From positions 120,190-152,189 of the forward strand of contig JBCCBQ010000001.1 in the NCBI GenBank assembly GCA_039033955.1: a stretch of DNA of 32,000 nucleotides, read 5' to 3'. The notes under the pieces were generated by a model that was not told the DNA's origin, ran no database searches, and saw only the letters and a program-made list of their open reading frames with translations. Origin of the DNA: Pseudomonadota bacterium. GTDB lineage: Bacteria > Pseudomonadota > Alphaproteobacteria > Caulobacterales > Hyphomonadaceae. The position numbers and the translations under genes were made by a program. Below, in pieces: positions 11,494-25,497 of this stretch. The first letter of the stretch is position 1. The number at the start of each line of letters is the position of its first letter.

Positions 11494-13581
11494 GTGCGCA
11501 GATATCTAATCATAATCTTTCTAGGGGCTTTGGCACTGTTCCTGTCTGCTTGCGGCCGGGGCGAAACCTCAGAGAAACGCGAATTGGCTGTGGAGAGCAC
11601 TGACGTCGCTGCAGTCCCAACCGAGCCACTCATAAAGCCATGGGGCTATCCTCTTGACGCGTTCGACCGATCGACGCGTCCGGGCGATGACTTCTTCATT
11701 TATGCGAATGGCGGCTGGCTGGCATCGGCGACAATCCCGTCCGACAGTTCGGGAACGGGTTTCTCTGTAGATATGCGCAACCGCACGCGCGATCGCCTGG
11801 CAAATATTATATCCGACATTGAGACAGGGTACGCGGCAAAGGGAACGCCAGAGCAGAGAATTCGCGATCTCTATAAAAGCTTCATGGATGAGGCACGTAT
11901 TGAAATAGCGACGCTGACGCCCTTCGAGGAACACCTTGATCGCTTGAAACGAGCGGAGACGCACGAAGATATCGCGGCCGCGATGGCGGACCCGGAAATG
12001 GGAATTGCATCCATCTTTGAGGCGGGTGTGGGCATCAACCCGAAACAGCCCAAGGAACACATTCTGCGTATCGGTCATGGCAGGCTCGGTTTGCCAGACC
12101 GAACTTATTATCTTCTGGAAAGTCGCCGACTTGAGGCAATACGCTCAGAGTATATCGACCACATAGACATTGTGCTGACCTTATTGGGTGAGCAGGGCAC
12201 CGGTCCACGCGCCGAGGCCGTATTCGAACTAGAGCTTGAAATGGCAAAGCGCCATTGGACGAGAGCAGACAGGCGCAATGCAGAACTAACGTTTAACCCA
12301 ATGACCGTGGCGGAGCTCGAAGAGTTCGCTCCCGGCTTCCCCTGGTCATCCATGTTGGGCGTCGAAGGGATGTCGGCGACAACAAATGTGCTTGTGCGCG
12401 AAAAGTCCGCATTCCCCGAACTCGCCAACTTGTTTGAAGACACCCCGATCAGTCAATGGCGCGACTATTCGCTGTTTCACTACGTAATGGCCAATGCGGT
12501 TTATATGCCGCGGAAATTCTCGGACCCAAGCTTCGGCTTCTTTCGACGGACCCTGCATGGTCAAGTCCAGCCACGGGCACGCCGATGGCGAGCGATCAGT
12601 TTCGTCGACAATCGCCTCGGCCAGGAAATTGGCAAGCTCTATGTCGACCGCTACTTCCCGGAAGACTCCAAACGTCAGATGGCGGAAATATTCCAGAATG
12701 TGAAGTCGGCATATCGAAACCGCATCGAAGGGTTGGACTGGATGACTGCTGAAACCAAGCAGTCAGCGCTGGCCAAGCTGGACGCTATGACGGGGCAGAT
12801 TGGGTATCCTGAAATTTGGCGCGACTATTCCGGAGTAGAGATAAGTGCGTACGATTTGTTTGGGAATGTACGTCGCCTGCGCGCGGCCGATCATGCTTTC
12901 AACCTCGGTAAGCTGGGTGAGCCGGTGGAACAGGGCGAGTGGTCGAGAAATCCGCAAACGGTGAATGCCTCCTACAGCCGGACGCGCAATGAGGCTTTTA
13001 TTCCGGCAGGCTACATTCAGTCCCCCATGTTTGATCCCAATGCCGACCCTGCCTTGAACTATGGGGCCATTGGGTCGGTTGTTGGTCACGAGATTGCACA
13101 CGGATTCGACGATCAGGGTTCCCGATATGGCGCCGATGGACGGCTTGAGGACTGGTGGACACCAGAGGATCGCGCAGCTTTCGATGAACAGGGTGAACGT
13201 TTAGTGGCTCAATTTAACACCTATGAGCCATTGCCCGGCCTCAGAGTGAATGGACGCCAGACATTGGGCGAGAATATTGGCGATTTGGCAGGCGTTACGG
13301 TCGCATACCATGCCTACGTTCTTTCATTGGATGGTCAGAAGGCTCCTGAGATTGACGGGTTCAGCGGTGAACAACGTTTCTTTCTCGGCCGCGCGCAGGC
13401 CCGTCGTTACAAGCGAACAGAGCAGGGCCTTCGGAAGCGTATTCTCTCACAAGTCCACAGTCCGATGGCGTTGAGGGTCAATGGCATCGTTCGAAATATG
13501 GATGAGTGGTACGAAGCTTTCGATATCCAGCCGGACGATGAGTTATACTTAGCACCGGAAGACCGCATCAGGATCTGGTAG
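11494..13581 (+). CDS. M13 family zinc metallopeptidase (PepO/endothelin-converting-enzyme-like), lipoprotein
   Basis: 695 aa with a GTG start. The lipobox is MRRYLIIIFLGALALFLSAC. Zinc motif VVGHEIAHGFDD, downstream GENIGDLAG, and C-terminal ...RIW. Confidence 0.9.
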   Translation: MRRYLIIIFLGALALFLSACGRGETSEKRELAVESTDVAAVPTEPLIKPWGYPLDAFDRSTRPGDDFFIYANGGWLASATIPSDSSGTGFSVDMRNRTRDRLANIISDIETGYAAKGTPEQRIRDLYKSFMDEARIEIATLTPFEEHLDRLKRAETHEDIAAAMADPEMGIASIFEAGVGINPKQPKEHILRIGHGRLGLPDRTYYLLESRRLEAIRSEYIDHIDIVLTLLGEQGTGPRAEAVFELELEMAKRHWTRADRRNAELTFNPMTVAELEEFAPGFPWSSMLGVEGMSATTNVLVREKSAFPELANLFEDTPISQWRDYSLFHYVMANAVYMPRKFSDPSFGFFRRTLHGQVQPRARRWRAISFVDNRLGQEIGKLYVDRYFPEDSKRQMAEIFQNVKSAYRNRIEGLDWMTAETKQSALAKLDAMTGQIGYPEIWRDYSGVEISAYDLFGNVRRLRAADHAFNLGKLGEPVEQGEWSRNPQTVNASYSRTRNEAFIPAGYIQSPMFDPNADPALNYGAIGSVVGHEIAHGFDDQGSRYGADGRLEDWWTPEDRAAFDEQGERLVAQFNTYEPLPGLRVNGRQTLGENIGDLAGVTVAYHAYVLSLDGQKAPEIDGFSGEQRFFLGRAQARRYKRTEQGLRKRILSQVHSPMALRVNGIVRNMDEWYEAFDIQPDDELYLAPEDRIRIW

Positions 13582-19641: not shown

Positions 19642-20343
19642 CTAGGCAGCTTGCGCTTCTTTCTTCGGTTTAGGGTCACGAAGGACATACCCCCGACCCC
19701 AAACGGTTTCGATATGGTGTTCACCACCCGTGGCTTGAGCCAGCTTCTTGCGCAGCTTGCAGATAAACACGTCAATAATCTTGAGCTCTGGTTCGTCCAT
19801 GCCGCCATAGAGGTGGTTGAGAAACATCTCTTTGGTCAGTGTCGTACCCTTCCGAAGGGAAAGAAGCTCGAACATTTGATATTCTTTGCCGGTGAGGTGG
19901 ACGCGATCATTATCAACTTCGACCGTTTTGGCGTCGAGATTGACGAGAATATCGCCGGTTCGAATGACGCTTTCAGCGTGCCCTTTGGAGCGACGAACGA
20001 TTGCTGTAATCCGAGCGATCAACTCGTCTTTGTTAAAGGGTTTGGTGAGGTAGTCGTCAGCGCCGTAACCGAGCGTCTTAACTTTTGCTTCGATGTCCGG
20101 GTTACCGGAGAGGATCAGGACGGGTGTATTGATCCTTGCCATCCGGAGCTGCTTCAGCACGTCATATCCCGAGATATCCGGCAAGGACAGATCGAGGATA
20201 ATGATGTCGTACTCGTAGACTTTACCGAGATCGACACCCTCTTCACCGAGATCCGTGGTGTAGATGTTGAAACCGGCAGCCTTCAGCATCAGTTCTATAC
20301 TGCGGGCGACGGCGGTATCGTCTTCAATCAGAAGGACGCGCAT
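19642..20343 (-). CDS. ctrA: Cell-cycle response regulator CtrA (OmpR family)
   Basis: 233 aa and nearly collinear with Caulobacter CtrA as I recall it. It reads MRVLLIEDD...[20 protein letters not shown]...LDL.LPD.SG.DVL..LR.A.INTP..ILSG...[53 protein letters not shown]...[16 protein letters not shown]. Confidence 0.9.
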
Positions 20344-20386: not shown

Positions 20387-20536
20387 CCAAACGTTAAGAG
20401 ACCACACTTTAAGAAAGGTTAACGGCAGTACCAATTCGTAAATACGCACTCACACCATAACGTTGGACGTCCGTGAGAGAGAGTTGATTTGTTCCAGAGA
20501 TCAAGTTCCGATGTTATAGTAATAACAGGTTTGGCC

Positions 20537-22657
20537 ATGAGGATACTGACGATATCACCTCTACAAATCGCTGCTATCATTGGAGCGATGCTCGCTTGGG
20601 CGAGCATTGGAGCAGTGGCCGAAGACCTGAATCGAGCTGATAGCTTTACCCAGGATAGCTCTCTGAATGCGACCGCCATGAGGGGTATCGACCAAGACGG
20701 GGTTGACTTCGCCACTGATCCTGGAGCCGACTTTTACCGATACGCAAATGGCCGTTGGCATGACACCGCCAGGATCGAAGATGGTGATTGGCAGGCGGGA
20801 ACCTCCCAATCCGTTCGAAACCGCGTTGAGCGCCGGACCTCTGAAATTGTCCGCGAGTTGCGCCGCGACCGGTGGCCAGGGAGCAGCAACGAAGGGAAGT
20901 TTCTGACGATTTACAACAACTACAACAATCGGGAGGCAAGACGTCAGGCGGGGCTGCGCCCTATCAGGCCGTTTATAGAGTTGATTGGCCGGGCAGAGAC
21001 CCATGATGATGTGGCGTCCCTCTTGGGAAGTTACAATCTGGATGCAGGTGGGCTTTTCAAGGTCGCGCTTCGCCTCGATCCCATCCAAGGGGCTGGCTAT
21101 GTCGCATCGATAGAACCCGCTGACCTGCTTTTGCAGTCTCAGGCGCTGTATCTCCGGCAAGACAGTCTGGCGATTGATCAACGCAACGAGTCCCGAAGGC
21201 TGCTCGCCCGGTTACTTCGCCGAGTGGGACGCAATTCCCGAGCAGAAAGTCGGGTCGATGCGGTCTTTGAACTTGAGCACCGCCTTGCTGAGCTTTATCC
21301 AGAGCCTGTCGCTGCCCGACAACCTATAATCGCGGAAAATGTGTTCGGTATCGCGTCGCTCGAAACAACCTTCCCGGAATTCCCGTGGCGGCGTTTTCTC
21401 GCAGCCAGAGGTGTCGTCAAAGATACCATTATTCAAGTTCCGCCACGCGATCAGATTCCAGAACTCATCGCTCTATTTCACGCCACTCCGGTAAGTGTAT
21501 GGCGAGACTACATGACCCTTCGACTTATCCTGTCGTATGGCAGTTATCTGGACGAGGGGACTGACCGTCTGGTTGCAGAGTTCGATGCCGCACGCAGCGG
21601 CATTGCATATACGCCGCTGAAGCGACGTGAACGTGCGTGGAGGGTCGCGGCAGACATTTTGCCGGACCCAATTGGTCGAGCCTATGTGGAGCAATACCTG
21701 ACGGACACGACCGTTGTCGAAGTGCACAAAATCGTGGACTGGACCCTGCTTGCTTATCGCGAGCGCATCGAAGCGGCAGATTGGCTGGAGGCTGAAACTC
21801 GCCGACGCGCCATCGAAAAACTGGACGCCATCACAGTGGTCGTGGGTGAACCGCCCGGCTGGAACAATTTCGATTTTTTCACCCCAATAAGAGGAAGTCT
21901 GTTTTCCAACGCCTATTCCCGCCAGCAATTGCGTCATAGATCGGCTTTGGCGCGATTGCTGTCATCTACGGAGGATGAAGAAGATCCGTCGACACCGTCG
22001 AAGAACCCACTTGATGATATCTTCTTCTCACCAATCAGCGTGGGCGCTTACTACTTACCCACGCTGAATTCCATTGTTGTTCCAGCGGCATACCTTCAGG
22101 CCCCATACTATGATCCGTCCGCAAGCTTGGCGGTTAACTTCGGTGCGCTCGGCACCACGATCGGACACGAACTGGGCCATGCGTTCGATGACCAGGGGGC
22201 GAGGCGTGGCCCAGACGGCCAAATCACAGACTGGTGGAGTGCTAAGGATAACGAACAGTTTGTTGCCAAGGGGGACAAGCTGTCTCGGCACCTGTCAGCA
22301 TTTGAGGCGGCACCTGGAATTCCGTTGAACACAGCACTGACGCTTGGAGAGAACCTCAGTGATCTGGTTGGCGTTGAAATCGCATTCCGCGCCATGGAGT
22401 TAGCCCATCACGCGGGTGGGGGAGAAGGGGTAGCCAAAGAAGATGCCCAGGCGTTTTTCATAAGCTATGCTCAGAAAAGAAGGGCGAAACGGCTACCGAC
22501 GATCGAAATCGATTTCGCCTATTCCAATTTGCACAGTCCGCCATCGGTGCGCGTAAACGGCATCCTTCCGCACGTTGATCAATGGTACTCAGCTTTCGAT
22601 GTGTCTGAAGATGACCCCCTATGGGTCGCACCCGAAGATAGGGTCCGCATTTGGTAG
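20537..22657 (+). CDS. M13 family zinc metallopeptidase, secreted (second paralogue)
   Basis: The start was chosen at ATG 20537, giving MRILTISPLQIAAIIGAMLAWASIGAVA, a signal peptide. Zinc motif TIGHELGHAFDD, GENLSDLVG, and C-terminal ...RIW. It is clearly diverged from the 11494-13581 copy. Confidence 0.9.
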   Translation: MRILTISPLQIAAIIGAMLAWASIGAVAEDLNRADSFTQDSSLNATAMRGIDQDGVDFATDPGADFYRYANGRWHDTARIEDGDWQAGTSQSVRNRVERRTSEIVRELRRDRWPGSSNEGKFLTIYNNYNNREARRQAGLRPIRPFIELIGRAETHDDVASLLGSYNLDAGGLFKVALRLDPIQGAGYVASIEPADLLLQSQALYLRQDSLAIDQRNESRRLLARLLRRVGRNSRAESRVDAVFELEHRLAELYPEPVAARQPIIAENVFGIASLETTFPEFPWRRFLAARGVVKDTIIQVPPRDQIPELIALFHATPVSVWRDYMTLRLILSYGSYLDEGTDRLVAEFDAARSGIAYTPLKRRERAWRVAADILPDPIGRAYVEQYLTDTTVVEVHKIVDWTLLAYRERIEAADWLEAETRRRAIEKLDAITVVVGEPPGWNNFDFFTPIRGSLFSNAYSRQQLRHRSALARLLSSTEDEEDPSTPSKNPLDDIFFSPISVGAYYLPTLNSIVVPAAYLQAPYYDPSASLAVNFGALGTTIGHELGHAFDDQGARRGPDGQITDWWSAKDNEQFVAKGDKLSRHLSAFEAAPGIPLNTALTLGENLSDLVGVEIAFRAMELAHHAGGGEGVAKEDAQAFFISYAQKRRAKRLPTIEIDFAYSNLHSPPSVRVNGILPHVDQWYSAFDVSEDDPLWVAPEDRVRIW

Positions 22658-22661
22658 GGCT

Positions 22662-22946
22662 CTAGATCCTTGCCGGTTCGTCAATGATCTCAGTGAGGGT
22701 CACCCCAAGCTCCCCATCTGCAATAACCAGTTTCCCTCGAGCCATCAGCCGGTCGGAAACGTAGATATCAACAGGCTCGTTTGCTCGCCGCTCCAGCGCA
22801 ACAATGTCACCTGAGGCCATGTTTTGAAGGTCTTCAATTGGCATGCGTGCCTCGCCGAGTACCACGTCGACCTGAACGGGCACGTCCATCAGTCTTTGAG
22901 CAAGGGCAGGATTTTCAGCAGAACTCATGGCGAATAAGTTTGGCAA
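22662..22946 (-). CDS. fliN: Flagellar motor switch protein FliN (SpoA domain)
   Basis: 88-94 aa (TTG 22946 or ATG 22928). It reads VPVQVDVVLGEARMPIEDLQNMASGDIVALERRANEPVDIYVSDRLMARGKLVIADGELGVTLTEI, the canonical FliN C-terminal domain. Confidence 0.85.
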   Translation of the reverse strand: MPNLFAMSSAENPALAQRLMDVPVQVDVVLGEARMPIEDLQNMASGDIVALERRANEPVDIYVSDRLMARGKLVIADGELGVTLTEIIDEPARI

Positions 22947-22953
22947 GAAAGTG

Positions 22954-23346
22954 TTAACGATCTGTCGATGCAGCCGATGGATCGAACAGATCCCCCTGGC
23001 CGTCGACGATGAGCTGGCATGCAGAAGCCATAAGCGCCCGAGCGCGACTGCGGTCTTCCTCTTCCATTTTTATCCGATCGAGATGGTCGGCGAGCTCCAA
23101 AAGATGTTTCAGCGCCGCTTTTAGTTCGATAGCCGTTTTTTCTAATCTTTCCAGGGTTTTGGCGTTTTGGTGCGTATGCTCCTGGATCATCTCGACGCGA
23201 GCGTTTTCCAGAAGTCGGGACAGGTCTTGAGCCGTCAAAGATATCACACCACTCGCATCGCCCTGAGGTGCGCTCTCAAAATCCAAAGCACCGAACTTAG
23301 GAGAGAACGTGAAAGCCCGAATGGATTGGACGGTCCGGCGTGTCAC
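22954..23346 (-). CDS. Hypothetical coiled-coil protein in the flbE/fliH position of the operon
   Basis: 130 aa. Its GTG start overlaps the fliG stop (GTGA). The N-terminus is AFTFSPKFGALDF and a long helical, charged segment follows (LSRLLENARVEM...LERLEKTAIELKAALKHLLELADHLDRIKMEEEDR). The assignment is positional only. Confidence 0.4.
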   Translation of the reverse strand: MTRRTVQSIRAFTFSPKFGALDFESAPQGDASGVISLTAQDLSRLLENARVEMIQEHTHQNAKTLERLEKTAIELKAALKHLLELADHLDRIKMEEEDRSRARALMASACQLIVDGQGDLFDPSAASTDR

Positions 23347-24263
23347 TCAACAATGTCCTCTGCTCCTGACGAACCGGGCAGAATGTCTCCACTAGCAATG
23401 AGAGCTCTGGCAAGTCGCGTCATATCTGCTCTCGCCGCATCGACCGTTCTTTCGTCAATCTCTCCAAGCACGGCGATCTCCTCTTTGAGAACGTCGCGTG
23501 CGCGGTTGGTCATGTTTTTGTAGATGGTGGTTGATACCGGATTGTCCGTTCCGACCATCGCTATCATGAGGGTCTTACGCTCTAACCTTGAGAGGAGAGT
23601 CTGAATGCCGGCAGGGGGAAGTTTCGCAAGGTCCTCAAACCCAAACATCAGTGTTTGAATTCTGCGGCCTGCTTCGGGCTCCGCCGTCTGCAGCGCGGCC
23701 AAGAGCGTCTTGCTCGCGTCGGGGTCTAATTCATCGAAGATCCGCGCAAGATTATTTTCCTGCAGCTCTGTATGGCCATCTAGACGTCGGACACGGTCTT
23801 CCAATGCCTGCTCGATGGCGTCCATCGCTTCCACATGAGGTGGATTCATATGAAGCATTCTCTGAAGAACATCGATGGCAACAAGTGATGGTAGGTGCCG
23901 TACGATTTCAGCTGATTGCGTTGGTGGAAGCCGGCCAAGAACAAGGGCCACCAATTGTGGATGTTCATCGCTGAGCACCGACAACACCTTATCCCGCGAC
24001 ACAGACCCCAGTTTCTCCCAAACCGATGACGCTGGTTTTACACGCGCGGTCGGGTTCAATTCGCTTAATAGAGCACTGGCAGCGCGTTCCTCATCCGCAG
24101 CGTCCTCCGGCAGTGTGTCGAGTACATCACTGATCTGTTTAGCATATTCTGGCGGCAGTTCGGCCCAGACCTCGGCTGCGCGGGGTCCGAGAGCACGAAG
24201 GAGGCGTGCTGAACGGAGTATGCCATCAGCCGTCGCTTTCGTGCTGGGCGCGGGCAGTGCCAT
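23343..24263 (-). CDS. fliG: Flagellar motor switch protein FliG (short, 306 aa)
   Basis: EHPQ motif (LSDEHPQLVALVL), MFxF motif (LMFGFEDLAKL), and the C-terminal pattern YKNMTNRARDVLKEEI...AARADMTRLARALIASGDI, as in the FliG torque domain. The start ATG overlaps the upstream stop (TGATG). Confidence 0.85.
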   Translation of the reverse strand: MALPAPSTKATADGILRSARLLRALGPRAAEVWAELPPEYAKQISDVLDTLPEDAADEERAASALLSELNPTARVKPASSVWEKLGSVSRDKVLSVLSDEHPQLVALVLGRLPPTQSAEIVRHLPSLVAIDVLQRMLHMNPPHVEAMDAIEQALEDRVRRLDGHTELQENNLARIFDELDPDASKTLLAALQTAEPEAGRRIQTLMFGFEDLAKLPPAGIQTLLSRLERKTLMIAMVGTDNPVSTTIYKNMTNRARDVLKEEIAVLGEIDERTVDAARADMTRLARALIASGDILPGSSGAEDIVE

Positions 24264-24910
24264 CAGCGATTGTCCTCATCACGTAGCCAGCCGGTGATAA
24301 TCTCGGCCGTGCGAGCGGGTTGATGCTCGGCGAACTCAGCGGCCTTATCGAGGGAAGATGCCGCCTTTGCAAGCGTCGTTGGCGGTGTGTGGGGGCGAGA
24401 AATGACATCGTTTGCAGGAACTGGATCAGCAACCGGTGCAACGAGCCTACGCCTCTGAACCGCTACGAAGAGAAGCCCTGACAACACAGATATTGCAAAA
24501 AGTGTCAGACATTCGGCGAAGAACAAAAATCCCGCTGCTCCGATCGAGCGCGGAGTGAAGTTCGCTTCCGTCACTGAAACGGCTCTACCTGGGGCCATGG
24601 ATTGGATGATGGCTGTAATCTGCTTGGCGTCGCTTGCCGTTTCAGCCGTCTGTCGATCTGAGTTTAGCAGAACAACGATATCGCCGGTTCCAGTGTCACC
24701 AATGCGTACATTGCCCTCTCCAACGAGGGTTTCCGCAAGCGATATGTAGGGGGAATTTGTTTTGGACGCACTCGGGCTTGGGTCTCCTGCGACCACCCGA
24801 AGCACGAGTGCAACGACCGACAGGACAAAAAGGATGCCCGTGATCCACGCCAGGGTTCCTTCGGTTCGTTCAAGACTTGAAGGCACGGCAAAACTCCCAG
24901 CAACGGCCAA
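24263..24910 (-). CDS. Miniature FliF-like membrane protein (TM1, single RBM-like periplasmic domain, TM2, FliG-binding-like C-terminal tail)
   Basis: The longest ORF is 215 aa with a TTG start at 24910. The more likely start is GTG 24886, which sits behind GGGAG with a 7-nt spacer and gives 207 aa. It occupies the fliF slot directly upstream of fliG. The TM segments are LAWITGILFVLSVVALVLRVV and IGAAGFLFFAECLTLFAISVLSGLLFVAV. The periplasmic part LAETL..GNVRI..DIVVLLNSD..DAKQITAIIQSMAPG..VSVTE resembles the YscJ/FliF ring-building motif. The tail ...HQPARTAEIITGWLRDEDNR resembles the FliF C-terminus. Confidence 0.55.
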   Translation of the reverse strand: MAVAGSFAVPSSLERTEGTLAWITGILFVLSVVALVLRVVAGDPSPSASKTNSPYISLAETLVGEGNVRIGDTGTGDIVVLLNSDRQTAETASDAKQITAIIQSMAPGRAVSVTEANFTPRSIGAAGFLFFAECLTLFAISVLSGLLFVAVQRRRLVAPVADPVPANDVISRPHTPPTTLAKAASSLDKAAEFAEHQPARTAEIITGWLRDEDNR

Positions 24911-24945: not shown

Positions 24946-24962
24946 GTAAACGGCGCTTTAAC
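24946..24962 (-). promoter_or_regulatory. Near-consensus CtrA box (TTAA-N7-TTTAC on the gene strand) upstream of the fliF-like operon
   Basis: The minus strand reads G-TTAA(24961-24958)-AGCGCCG-TTTA(24950-24947)-C, an 8/9 match to TTAA-N7-TTAAC. It lies in the 69-bp sciP/fliF-like spacer, 36 bp (TTG start) or 60 bp (GTG start) upstream of the coding start. Confidence 0.3.
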
Positions 24963-24979: not shown

Positions 24980-25255
24980 CTAGATGCGGCGATACTGCTG
25001 TATACGGGTCGCGCGAAGGCCTTTGGCACCGTGACTTGTGTAAAGACGGACCCAGCCGGAGAATTCTTCATCCGACAGCCCATAGCGTTCACACGCATCT
25101 TCCTGGGAGAGGAGACCTCCCCTTACAGCCGCGACGACTTCTGCCTTGCGGCGTGTCACCCAGCGTTTGGTGCCAGGTGCCGGAAGGTCTTCGAGTGTCA
25201 AAGGACGCCCATTTGGCCCCGAAACACTCACTACGAAAGCATTCTGCTCACTCAT
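24980..25255 (-). CDS. sciP: SciP-like small transcriptional regulator (DUF1153)
   Basis: 91 aa from ATG 25255, behind a GAGGTGG Shine-Dalgarno; the longest ORF starts at GTG 25264. PLTLEDLP..TKRWVTRRKAEVVAAVRGGLLSQEDACERYGLS.EEF..W.....HG..GLRATRIQQYR closely follows the Caulobacter SciP/DUF1153 pattern as I recall it. Confidence 0.8.
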   Translation of the reverse strand: MSEQNAFVVSVSGPNGRPLTLEDLPAPGTKRWVTRRKAEVVAAVRGGLLSQEDACERYGLSDEEFSGWVRLYTSHGAKGLRATRIQQYRRI

Positions 25256-25497
25256 TTTGTCCACCTCATAAGCAAGGGTCGTTCTGTCCCTCGTGCTATG
25301 AACACTACAGGATGCGACTTAAGGGGACGCTCAGCGGGATCGATCAGTTTTGATGAAAATTCGATATGTCTTGGCGCGGCATGTTTGCACTTCGTTGGCA
25401 AAGCTGTGCCGGATTGGCGCACTTAATGTCGATTCTGCGCGAACCTTGCGAAACGGCCAAGGAAACCTTTGCAAATGGTTTCTGCCTGTTTTGACGT

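Follow-up and report, generated by a model that had tools for sequence, protein, structure and literature searches.

A conserved, predicted FliF derivative encoded beside sciP with its own divergent FliG and FliN in Hyphomonadaceae

Introduction

The flagellum is considered to have an indivisible base in FliF, in which the membrane ring, the housing of the export gate, the socket of the rod and the anchor of FliG are united in one chain of 550 amino acids (aa). Canonical FliF proteins are ~530-600 aa long, match the Pfam models PF01514 and PF08345, form a ring of ~34 subunits and bind the N-domain of FliG. Here, we describe a much shorter gene that occupies the fliF position, directly upstream of a fliG, in the metagenome-assembled genome (MAG) of a member of the Hyphomonadaceae (Alphaproteobacteria, Caulobacterales; GenBank assembly GCA_039033955.1, contig JBCCBQ010000001.1, positions 120,190 to 152,189). 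These 32,000 nt are the window of this report, and coordinates refer to them unless another locus is named. As judged from sequence comparison and structure prediction, the product, which we term mini-FliF, is derived from FliF and consists of a first transmembrane (TM) helix, the third ring-building motif (RBM3) minus its beta-collar, a second TM helix, a proline-rich linker and C-terminal helices of the FliG-binding type.

Mini-FliF and canonical FliF are alike in having two TM helices around a periplasmic region and, in the same order, the RBM3 core, TM2, a variable linker and an A..P..A..R.W(L/M) helix, and in being encoded directly upstream of, and translationally coupled to, fliG, as in Escherichia coli and Phenylobacterium. 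In contrast to the ~550 aa of canonical FliF, mini-FliF has ~210 aa, appears to lack both RBM1 and RBM2 (the SctJ-homology region around the export gate) and the beta-collar of RBM3, and matches neither PF01514 nor the NCBIfam fliF model; judged by gene position, it also coexists in Hyphomonas neptunium with a full-length FliF encoded elsewhere. Mini-FliF is a partial member of the FliF family: it shares the RBM3 core, TM2, tail and gene position of that family and is without the SctJ-homology region and the collar.

The only natural reduction of FliF that we found described is the ~330-aa FliF of Chlamydiaceae, which comprises RBM2 plus another RBM-like unit and ends, in the cytoplasm, in a FliG-M-like domain fused to it (Bergeron 2016, PMC4768692). 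Mini-FliF resembles this protein in being naturally reduced, with two TM helices and fewer RBMs, and in lying outside a complete canonical flagellar gene set. It differs in its predicted collar-less RBM3, which stands alone, in its normal FliG-binding-type tail and in the separate fliG downstream, and one well-studied host of mini-FliF, H. neptunium, is flagellated. In genomic terms, the class II fliF operon of Caulobacteraceae (fliF-fliG-flbE-fliN) has the same gene order, stop/start coupling and proximity to sciP. In Phenylobacterium zucineum (Caulobacteraceae), these four genes stand in this order with coupled junctions and encode proteins of 547, 341, 215 and 110 aa, compared with ~215, 306, ~125 and 88 aa in the module described here, which moreover is not followed by flbD and has highly divergent paralogues of FliG and FliN.

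SpoIIIAH and SpoIIIAG also combine a membrane anchor with one alpha-beta-beta-alpha-beta RBM, and the RBM of SpoIIIAG has a beta insertion like that of FliF RBM3; mini-FliF, without the insertion, may be seen to stand to FliF RBM3, with it, as SpoIIIAH does to SpoIIIAG. This is an analogy of architecture only, as the SpoIIIA proteins have one TM helix, no FliG-binding tail and no significant sequence or fold match to mini-FliF; a single family member gave a weak match to the SpoIIIAH Pfam model (E 0.11). Full-text literature searches (HNE_1391-1394, Hyphomonadaceae flagellar gene clusters and related terms) returned no description of mini-FliF. The proteins are labelled 'hypothetical' or 'uncharacterized' in RefSeq and UniProt, and the automatic IMG pipeline calls two members 'FliF/YscJ'. 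An earlier inspection of the letters of the window by a model (the sequence-only reading) had presented this architecture as one not known to have been described, and neither the databases nor the literature that we searched gave cause to revise that impression.

Relationship of mini-FliF to FliF

In its longest form, the open reading frame (ORF) extends from 24263 to 24910 on the minus strand and encodes 215 aa from a TTG codon at 24910. The true start is most likely the GTG at 24886 (207 aa), and we took 24263-24886 as the gene because a GGGAG sequence stands 7 nt upstream of this GTG and homologues are alike, GGAG or GGGAG elements likewise preceding the starts in other loci. The gap from the sciP stop codon to the start of mini-FliF is 69 bp (TTG) or 93 bp (GTG), and at the far end the TGA codon (24263-24265) overlaps the ATG of fliG at 24263 by 1 nt, with a common A. 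The sequence confirms in this respect what had been read from it before, an ORF of 207-215 aa in the fliF slot whose stop overlaps the fliG start by 1 nt. Frameshifted remnants of a longer FliF had not been seen, and tblastn with five full-length FliFs against the 32 kb also found none of RBM1, RBM2 or the collar, the best match being the tail of mini-FliF itself (E 0.095). The NCBI record names the product 'hypothetical protein AAF292_00695', of 207 aa, on a MAG contig of 545 kb.

The sequence-only reading had called two TM helices, and both are borne out by hydropathy, with hydrophobic stretches at residues 16-45 and 122-153 (215-aa numbering is used throughout), and by an AlphaFold2 (AF2) model with a mean pLDDT of 79.9, which has one long helix at each stretch (Table 1). 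In the periplasmic segment, AF2 predicts alpha1 (56-63), beta1 (68-72), beta2 (78-83), alpha2 (88-105) and beta3 (111-116); the collar is absent, with ~5 residues between beta1 and beta2. Within TM2, a glutamate (E133, codon 24512-24514) is kept in 97% of 79 sequences, a charge that is unexpected for a plain anchor. Matches of the window protein to the Pfam/NCBIfam models McpB_HAMP, DUF4330 and PspC were dismissed as noise.

The relationship to FliF emerged from profile-profile comparison by HHalign, with the five aligned FliFs of E. coli, Roseivivax, Sulfitobacter, Sphingomonas and Azospirillum as target. Residues 84-216 aligned to FliF 383-553 with a probability of 94.8% and an E-value of 5.5e-8, and a second, weak alignment paired residues 49-74 with the first helix and strand of RBM3 (FliF 239-264). 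When the ~85 columns of the collar were removed from FliF, one contiguous alignment of 48-217 to 238-end was obtained, the score increased from 62 to 75-77, and the probability reached 96.7-96.9% (E 2-4e-10). The periplasmic segment by itself matched RBM3 minus collar with a probability of 92% (E 6.3e-7), compared with E-values of 1.5e-3 for RBM3 with its collar, 0.026 for RBM2, 0.45 for RBM1 and 0.4 for the collar alone, a preference for RBM3 minus collar over RBM2 of >4 orders of magnitude. Of the earlier claim that the protein has one RBM-like periplasmic domain of the RBM2 type, the domain stands and the type does not (RBM3 minus collar E 6e-7, RBM2 E 0.026). The inventory of lost parts changes with it: RBM1 and the collar are missing as had been proposed, but the third missing part is RBM2 in place of RBM3, so that, on the sequence comparisons, mini-FliF is a FliF without RBM1, RBM2 and beta-collar.

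Searches in the other direction gave the same picture. A profile hidden Markov model (HMM) of 79 members matched 125/125 canonical FliFs, always within their last 170-190 residues; reversed sequences gave no matches and shuffled sequences scored ≤7.5 bits. Among PDB sequences, the best match of the family profile was the flagellar M-ring protein 12dr_A (E 0.0011, FliF 459-566), with an alignment that covers the last periplasmic strand, TM2 and the C-terminal helix. At E ≤10 there were seven PDB matches, of which three were FliFs; the other two of these FliFs were also aligned at their C-terminal ends (8z5s, 554-579; 6scn, 466-559). A FliF-like C-terminal tail, which had been suggested from the sequence, is thereby supported by the PDB alignments, by the position of the matches in all 125 FliFs and by matches to PF08345, the FliF C-terminal model, in 3/23 relatives.

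The linker, which is disordered in the AF2 model, is the least conserved segment of the protein (mean pairwise identity 0.21) and the tail has the highest identity of all segments, with P198 and W208 invariant and A202 present in 96%. One locus of an uncultured Hyphomonadaceae MAG (L080, 4286-4666) has in the same slot a gene of 126 aa that comprises two TM helices, a short loop and a FliF-like tail, with no RBM, beside intact fliG, fliN and flhF/flhG-like genes. Because the tail contains the invariant P198 and W208, has the highest segment identity and is retained in this RBM-less protein, it looks like the core function of mini-FliF, as far as can be read from the sequences.

Distribution, conservation and selection

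An exhaustive HMMER scan of 1.84 billion representatives returned 24 cluster representatives, 23 of which are 194-239 aa long and align over most of their length. The remaining one, an outlier of 889 aa (P0010) whose match was confined to a local, repeated stretch, was excluded from the family. A word-seeded search with the single sequence matched that sequence only, and the family profile gave 13 proteins. Sequence identity within the family falls to 23%, and all nine members that were inspected individually have the same genomic context.

A scan of genomes seeded with the alignment of the module FliN identified 80 loci, in which FliN is 66-93% identical. All of the named genomes belong to the Hyphomonadaceae and include Hyphomonas atlantica, H. 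beringensis, H. pacifica, H. jannaschiana, H. polymorpha, H. johnsonii, H. oceanitis and H. chukchiensis; Henriciella aquimarina, Henriciella pelagia and many MAGs are further carriers. The loci nearest to that of the window are L011, L012 and L014 (FliN 85-93% identical). An ORF of 208-247 aa lies between sciP and fliG in 84/85 loci, abutting or overlapping fliG, and no complete locus lacks sciP upstream of the short gene. Comparison of the closer pairs gave dN/dS values of 0.04-0.38 (mini-FliF) and 0.04-0.13 (FliG). Purifying selection acts on mini-FliF, and the constant length together with these dN/dS values excludes pseudogenization or neutral decay at the level of the family, which answers, for the family, the question of neutral evolution that the sequence-only reading had raised.

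The intergenic region between sciP and mini-FliF is conserved in part as well. A TTAA-N7-TTTAC element is found there in 64/80 loci, at a median distance of 72 nt upstream of the mini-FliF start codon, and there is one match elsewhere in 1.74 Mb (both strands). With one base changed, it resembles TTAA-N7-TTAAC, which we take to be the CtrA consensus, and it may be a CtrA-box-like candidate promoter or regulator site; against this, ChIP tables for H. neptunium list no CtrA binding for HNE_1391-1393, the positional equivalents of the module genes. In the window, a partial inverted repeat (GTTTACG-N8-CGTAAAC) comes after the element.

Partners of mini-FliF in the module

On the minus strand of the window, sciP, mini-FliF, fliG, an ORF of 130 aa and fliN follow each other in this order. 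The FliG is a divergent paralogue, named 'FliG C-terminal domain-containing protein' in RefSeq, that scores 124 bits against TIGR00207 (cutoff 227) and is 26-29% identical both to E. coli FliG and to FliG of the Rhodobacterales island type. When the module FliGs are aligned with that of E. coli, R281 proves invariant and the EHPQ and MFxF(E/D)DL motifs are retained. D288/D289 are replaced by E-E in most members and by S-E or S-D in 3/10, such that at least one acidic residue is always present. Compared with the E. coli protein, ~25-35 residues of the N-domain and of the region linking N- and M-domains are missing, and the N-terminal region that is present is strongly conserved (GL.RSA.LMRALGP.AA.VWAEL).

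The ORF in the flbE/fliH slot is 122-130 aa long in every locus checked, and the 130-aa protein of the window has no Pfam or NCBIfam match. An identity as FliH/SctL is not supported: HHalign gave a probability of 17% and an E-value of 1.5e-3 over only 24 N-terminal columns, and the protein is too short for the C-terminal FliI-binding domain. One Hyphomonadaceae MAG (L049, 2961-5920) has two genes inserted between this ORF and fliN, which encode a protein of 416 aa with OmpA/BON domains and a coiled-coil protein of 562 aa.

FliN is 63-93% identical across module lineages. Directly downstream of fliN, 50/80 loci encode a GTPase of the SRP type that resembles FlhF and an ATPase of the MinD type that resembles FlhG (for example L016, 6347-8285). 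The former matches TIGR03499 below its cutoff (E 2e-18), and the latter, of the MinD/ParA type, is 77-99% identical among loci. In H. neptunium, the FlhF homologue is HNE_0942, away from the module.

Hyphomonas neptunium and the origin of the module

H. neptunium has a documented flagellum and motility, and its motility island comprises HNE_0239-0276 (Leicht et al. 2020, PMC7200025, supplementary tables). The island includes HNE_0241 (FliL), HNE_0242, a 'flagellar M-ring protein FliF' homologous to Caulobacter CC_0905, HNE_0243 (hypothetical), HNE_0244 (FliN), HNE_0245 (FliP) and HNE_0246 (FliG), followed by MotB, FliI, FlgB and others (PMC7200025). Separate from the island stand HNE_1390 (SciP), HNE_1391 (hypothetical), HNE_1392 (putative FliG) and HNE_1393 (hypothetical), with expression values for HNE_1391, HNE_1392 and HNE_1393 of 101, 33 and 95 reads per kilobase per million (RPKM; PMC7200025). 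By position, HNE_1391-1393 is the H. neptunium equivalent of the module, and mini-FliF would be, at least in this species, a second, reduced FliF paralogue beside a full-length FliF. The idea that we see here a lineage-specific reduction of the only FliF, as the sequence-only reading might suggest, does not agree with the full-length HNE_0242 or with the presence of the same short gene in 84 of the 85 loci.

The order of genes in the H. neptunium island is that of a Roseivivax plasmid cluster (fliM-fliL, fliF-fliH-fliN-fliP-fliG). In a FliF profile search aimed at a canonical FliF of the MAG, the best 120 of 2811 matches were essentially all FliFs of the Rhodobacterales type. In Caulobacter, sciP is CC_0903 and fliF is CC_0905. 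Two metagenome contigs (L098, 4620-7909; L099, 7406-9668) have a DUF1153 (SciP-like) gene directly upstream of a full-length FliF of 554-555 aa; in L098 the FliF (P0127), one of those with the highest scores against the mini-FliF HMM, is followed by an ORF of 246 aa and a FliN of 110 aa. Because these contigs pair a SciP-like gene with full-length FliF, the linkage of sciP and fliF appears to be older than the mini-FliF family. As the gene order of the module equals that of the Caulobacteraceae fliF-fliG-flbE-fliN operon, the simplest history that we can propose is one in which an ancestral fliF operon linked to sciP was retained and reduced to the module, while an island of the Rhodobacterales type, which in H. 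neptunium provides full-length FliF, FliH, FliN, FliP and FliG, supplies the canonical parts.

Discussion

We regard the homology of mini-FliF to FliF, its domain architecture, conservation, purifying selection and synteny and, in H. neptunium, the expression of the module genes as demonstrated. The account that explains them best, and that we consider probably correct as a whole, is that mini-FliF is a maintained protein and the first gene product of a coupled module with its own FliG, FlbE-slot protein and FliN, associated with the flagellum rather than autonomous. For the flagellar association taken by itself our preference is slight. We lean towards it because the module FliG keeps R281, the acidic residues at 288/289, EHPQ and MFxF(E/D)DL, because the module is without a FliM of its own, and because FlhF-like and FlhG-like genes stand directly after fliN in most loci.

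Mini-FliF could act as an inner-membrane anchor that oligomerizes through RBM3, by itself or in between full-length FliF subunits, and could offer its tail to the paralogous FliG for contact with the N-domain. On this anchor, the module FliG, the 88-aa FliN and the FlbE-slot protein might form a subassembly of the C-ring type. With neither RBM1 nor RBM2 mini-FliF would be unable to house the export gate, and with no collar it would not form a rod socket. Its action might lie in intercalation into the RBM3 ring of full-length FliF or in an early polar complex for assembly or placement. That the protein lacks what a canonical MS ring and rod socket need had been recognized from the sequence; to conclude from this that a canonical MS ring is beyond the organism's reach would be unfounded for the family. 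As candidate links to the Hyphomonas motor, the E-ring (FlgY/MotE) and a 'hat-like' structure related to the type III secretion system of flagella (fT3SS) were considered and rejected, as neither paper involves such a FliF-like protein.

Several results weigh against this account. The Pfam search proposed together with the sequence-only reading, and a search of NCBIfam, found no FliF model on the window protein even at E ≤1, neither PF01514 nor PF08345, and in the 23 relatives PF08345 was matched weakly (best E 7e-4) and PF01514 not at all. In the structural comparison proposed at the same time, Foldseek found no match of the AF2 model in the PDB at E ≤1e-3, and its top matches were generic alpha-beta-beta-alpha-beta domains (C-terminal domains of MamM/CzrB, ribosomal proteins) and not RBM proteins. 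The contact between the tail and the N-domain of FliG is one that we infer. There is no fliM in the module, and in the window clade neither flhF nor flhG follows fliN; in the FliG of that clade, K264 has become V or L and R297 has become D or E, with R281 and an acidic 288/289 retained. The equation of HNE_1391-1393 with the module was made by gene position, and the increase of 1.5-2.1 fold in the expression of these genes in a divJ mutant, along with that of island genes, has weak p-values (0.10-0.23; PMC7200025).

The rival that survives best is an autonomous machine, in which a membrane ring and a FliG/FliN complex resembling a C-ring, with no rod, hook or export gate, would work apart from the flagellum. 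We hold this to be unlikely. Its concrete form could be, for example, a cell-cycle-controlled polar landmark or scaffold, another stator-driven device or a signalling platform, and it may persist in non-flagellate members, possibly including the organism of this MAG. An independent existence would suit the physical separation of the module from the motility island in H. neptunium, its place in the window amid housekeeping genes and bracketed by sciP and ctrA, the reduced length of all four proteins relative to their P. zucineum counterparts, the lack of adjacent flhF/flhG and of two secondary torque-helix charges in the window clade, and the loss from mini-FliF of every part that contacts the rod or export gate. 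However, the residues and motif that FliG retains (R281, acidic 288/289, EHPQ) make sense for contacts with stator and FliM in a rotating motor; the module, encoding no FliM, would need that of the flagellum; and most loci have FlhF/FlhG-like genes for flagellar placement next to the module. Moreover, those cultured hosts that have names belong to Hyphomonas and Henriciella, H. neptunium is flagellated and motile, and no carrier has been demonstrated to be non-flagellate.

It is very unlikely that mini-FliF is unrelated to FliF and simply a small protein with two TM helices whose similarity stems from TM composition and a short amphipathic tail. The silence of the curated FliF models, the non-specific structure search and the commonness of the alpha-beta-beta-alpha-beta fold would allow it, but the profile-profile alignment spans RBM3, TM2 and tail in the order and register of FliF and improves without the collar, the HMM recognizes every one of the 125 FliFs while reversed and shuffled controls fail, and three of the seven PDB matches, the best included, are FliFs aligned at their C-termini. 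The IMG labels of two members and the location of the gene in the fliF position, coupled to fliG, point the same way.

Plain degeneration, in which the organism's only FliF was truncated by a deletion during loss of the flagellum and survives as a pseudogene or neutral remnant, we judge most unlikely. The window has no flagellar genes besides the module, its FliG falls below the NCBIfam equivalog cutoff, and no canonical FliF of this MAG stood among the best 120 of the 2811 FliF profile matches, as one would expect of decay. In contrast, the length of the protein is held within narrow bounds down to 23% identity, dN/dS is far from neutral, the stop/start overlap and the TTAA-N7-TTTAC element upstream are conserved, FliN remains highly similar across lineages, and H. 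neptunium expresses the gene at the corresponding position and has a full-length FliF as well. An assembly or binning artefact, with a deletion of ~1 kb created in assembly, is a natural suspicion for a MAG but practically negligible here, since Logan, an independent assembly of SRR22824269, agrees with the cluster at 100% identity, which shows that the shortness of mini-FliF is not the work of one assembler and does not bear out the deletion that the sequence-only reading had allowed for, and since dozens of isolate genomes show the same architecture.

As a maintained derivative of FliF, mini-FliF represents a natural and conserved dissection of that protein, in which a collar-less RBM3 and a FliG-docking tail are paired with their own FliG and FliN. 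H. neptunium is accessible to genetics, cryo-electron tomography (cryo-ET) and RNA-seq, by which one could ask whether RBM3 alone can set ring formation and the stoichiometry of FliF and FliG. The module also raises the questions of whether an assembly of the C-ring type is possible on an anchor without an export gate, whether two sets of FliF, FliG and FliN share one motor or build two structures, and how an ancestral sciP-linked fliF operon shrank once a second flagellar gene set took over. Annotation gains as well, since entries of Hyphomonadaceae that carry the names 'hypothetical protein' and 'FliG C-terminal domain-containing protein' can, in their hundreds, be corrected to parts of one module.

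Other features of the locus

The coordinates of mini-FliF, its segments and the neighbouring features are collected in Table 1.

Table 1. Positions in the window of mini-FliF, its predicted segments and the features around it
Feature	Positions	Strand	Evidence or remark
mini-FliF coding sequence	24263..24886	-	207 aa from GTG at 24886; NCBI start
GGGAG Shine-Dalgarno of mini-FliF	24894..24898	-	7 nt upstream of GTG 24886; read from sequence
TM1	24788..24865	-	residues ~16-41; AF2 helix 12-41; Kyte-Doolittle peak 2.6, stretch 8-37 in 207-aa numbering
Periplasmic RBM	24557..24754	-	residues ~53-118; AF2 alpha-beta-beta-alpha-beta, block-mean pLDDT 81-94
TM2	24452..24547	-	residues ~122-153; hydropathy; AF2 helix 125-157; aligned to FliF TM2
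Proline-rich cytoplasmic linker	24362..24451	-	residues 154-183; pLDDT 59-71
FliF-type C-terminal tail	24266..24361	-	AF2 helices 186-196, 198-214; motif A..A...P..TA.II..WL; presumed FliG N-domain dock
TTAA-N7-TTTAC element (TTAAAGCGCCGTTTAC)	24946..24961	-	conserved, sciP/mini-FliF intergenic region
Divergent FliG paralogue, 306 aa	23343..24263	-	FliG_C E 1.6e-28; FliG_M E 4.4e-17; FliG_N weak
130-aa ORF, flbE/fliH slot	22954..23346	-	4-nt overlap with fliG stop
Short FliN, 88 aa from ATG	22662..22928 (ORF to 22946)	-	SpoA domain only; TIGR02480 E 1e-25; PF01052 E 7e-24
sciP (CtrA inhibitor; DUF1153)	24980..25255	-	NF051866 CtrAInhibSciP E 3.6e-37, 126 bits (cutoff 100); PF06627 E 3e-37
ctrA	19642-20343	-	NF045991, 411 bits vs cutoff 350

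The sciP ORF extends to a GTG at 25264, and the ATG at 25255 agrees with the start of its homologues. Lying 2.3 kb beyond fliN, ctrA brackets the module together with sciP, the gene of the inhibitor of CtrA. The remaining genes of the window are of the housekeeping kind and comprise dapF, lgt, genes for acyl-CoA dehydrogenases and two M13 peptidases, prfA, prmC, mnmA, rbfA, infB and nusA. Between the module and ctrA there is only one gene, which encodes an M13 peptidase (20489-22657, plus strand) and lies immediately downstream of fliN on the opposite strand. This gene and a second M13 (neprilysin-type) peptidase gene at 11494-13581 (plus strand) are paralogous and stand 7 kb apart.

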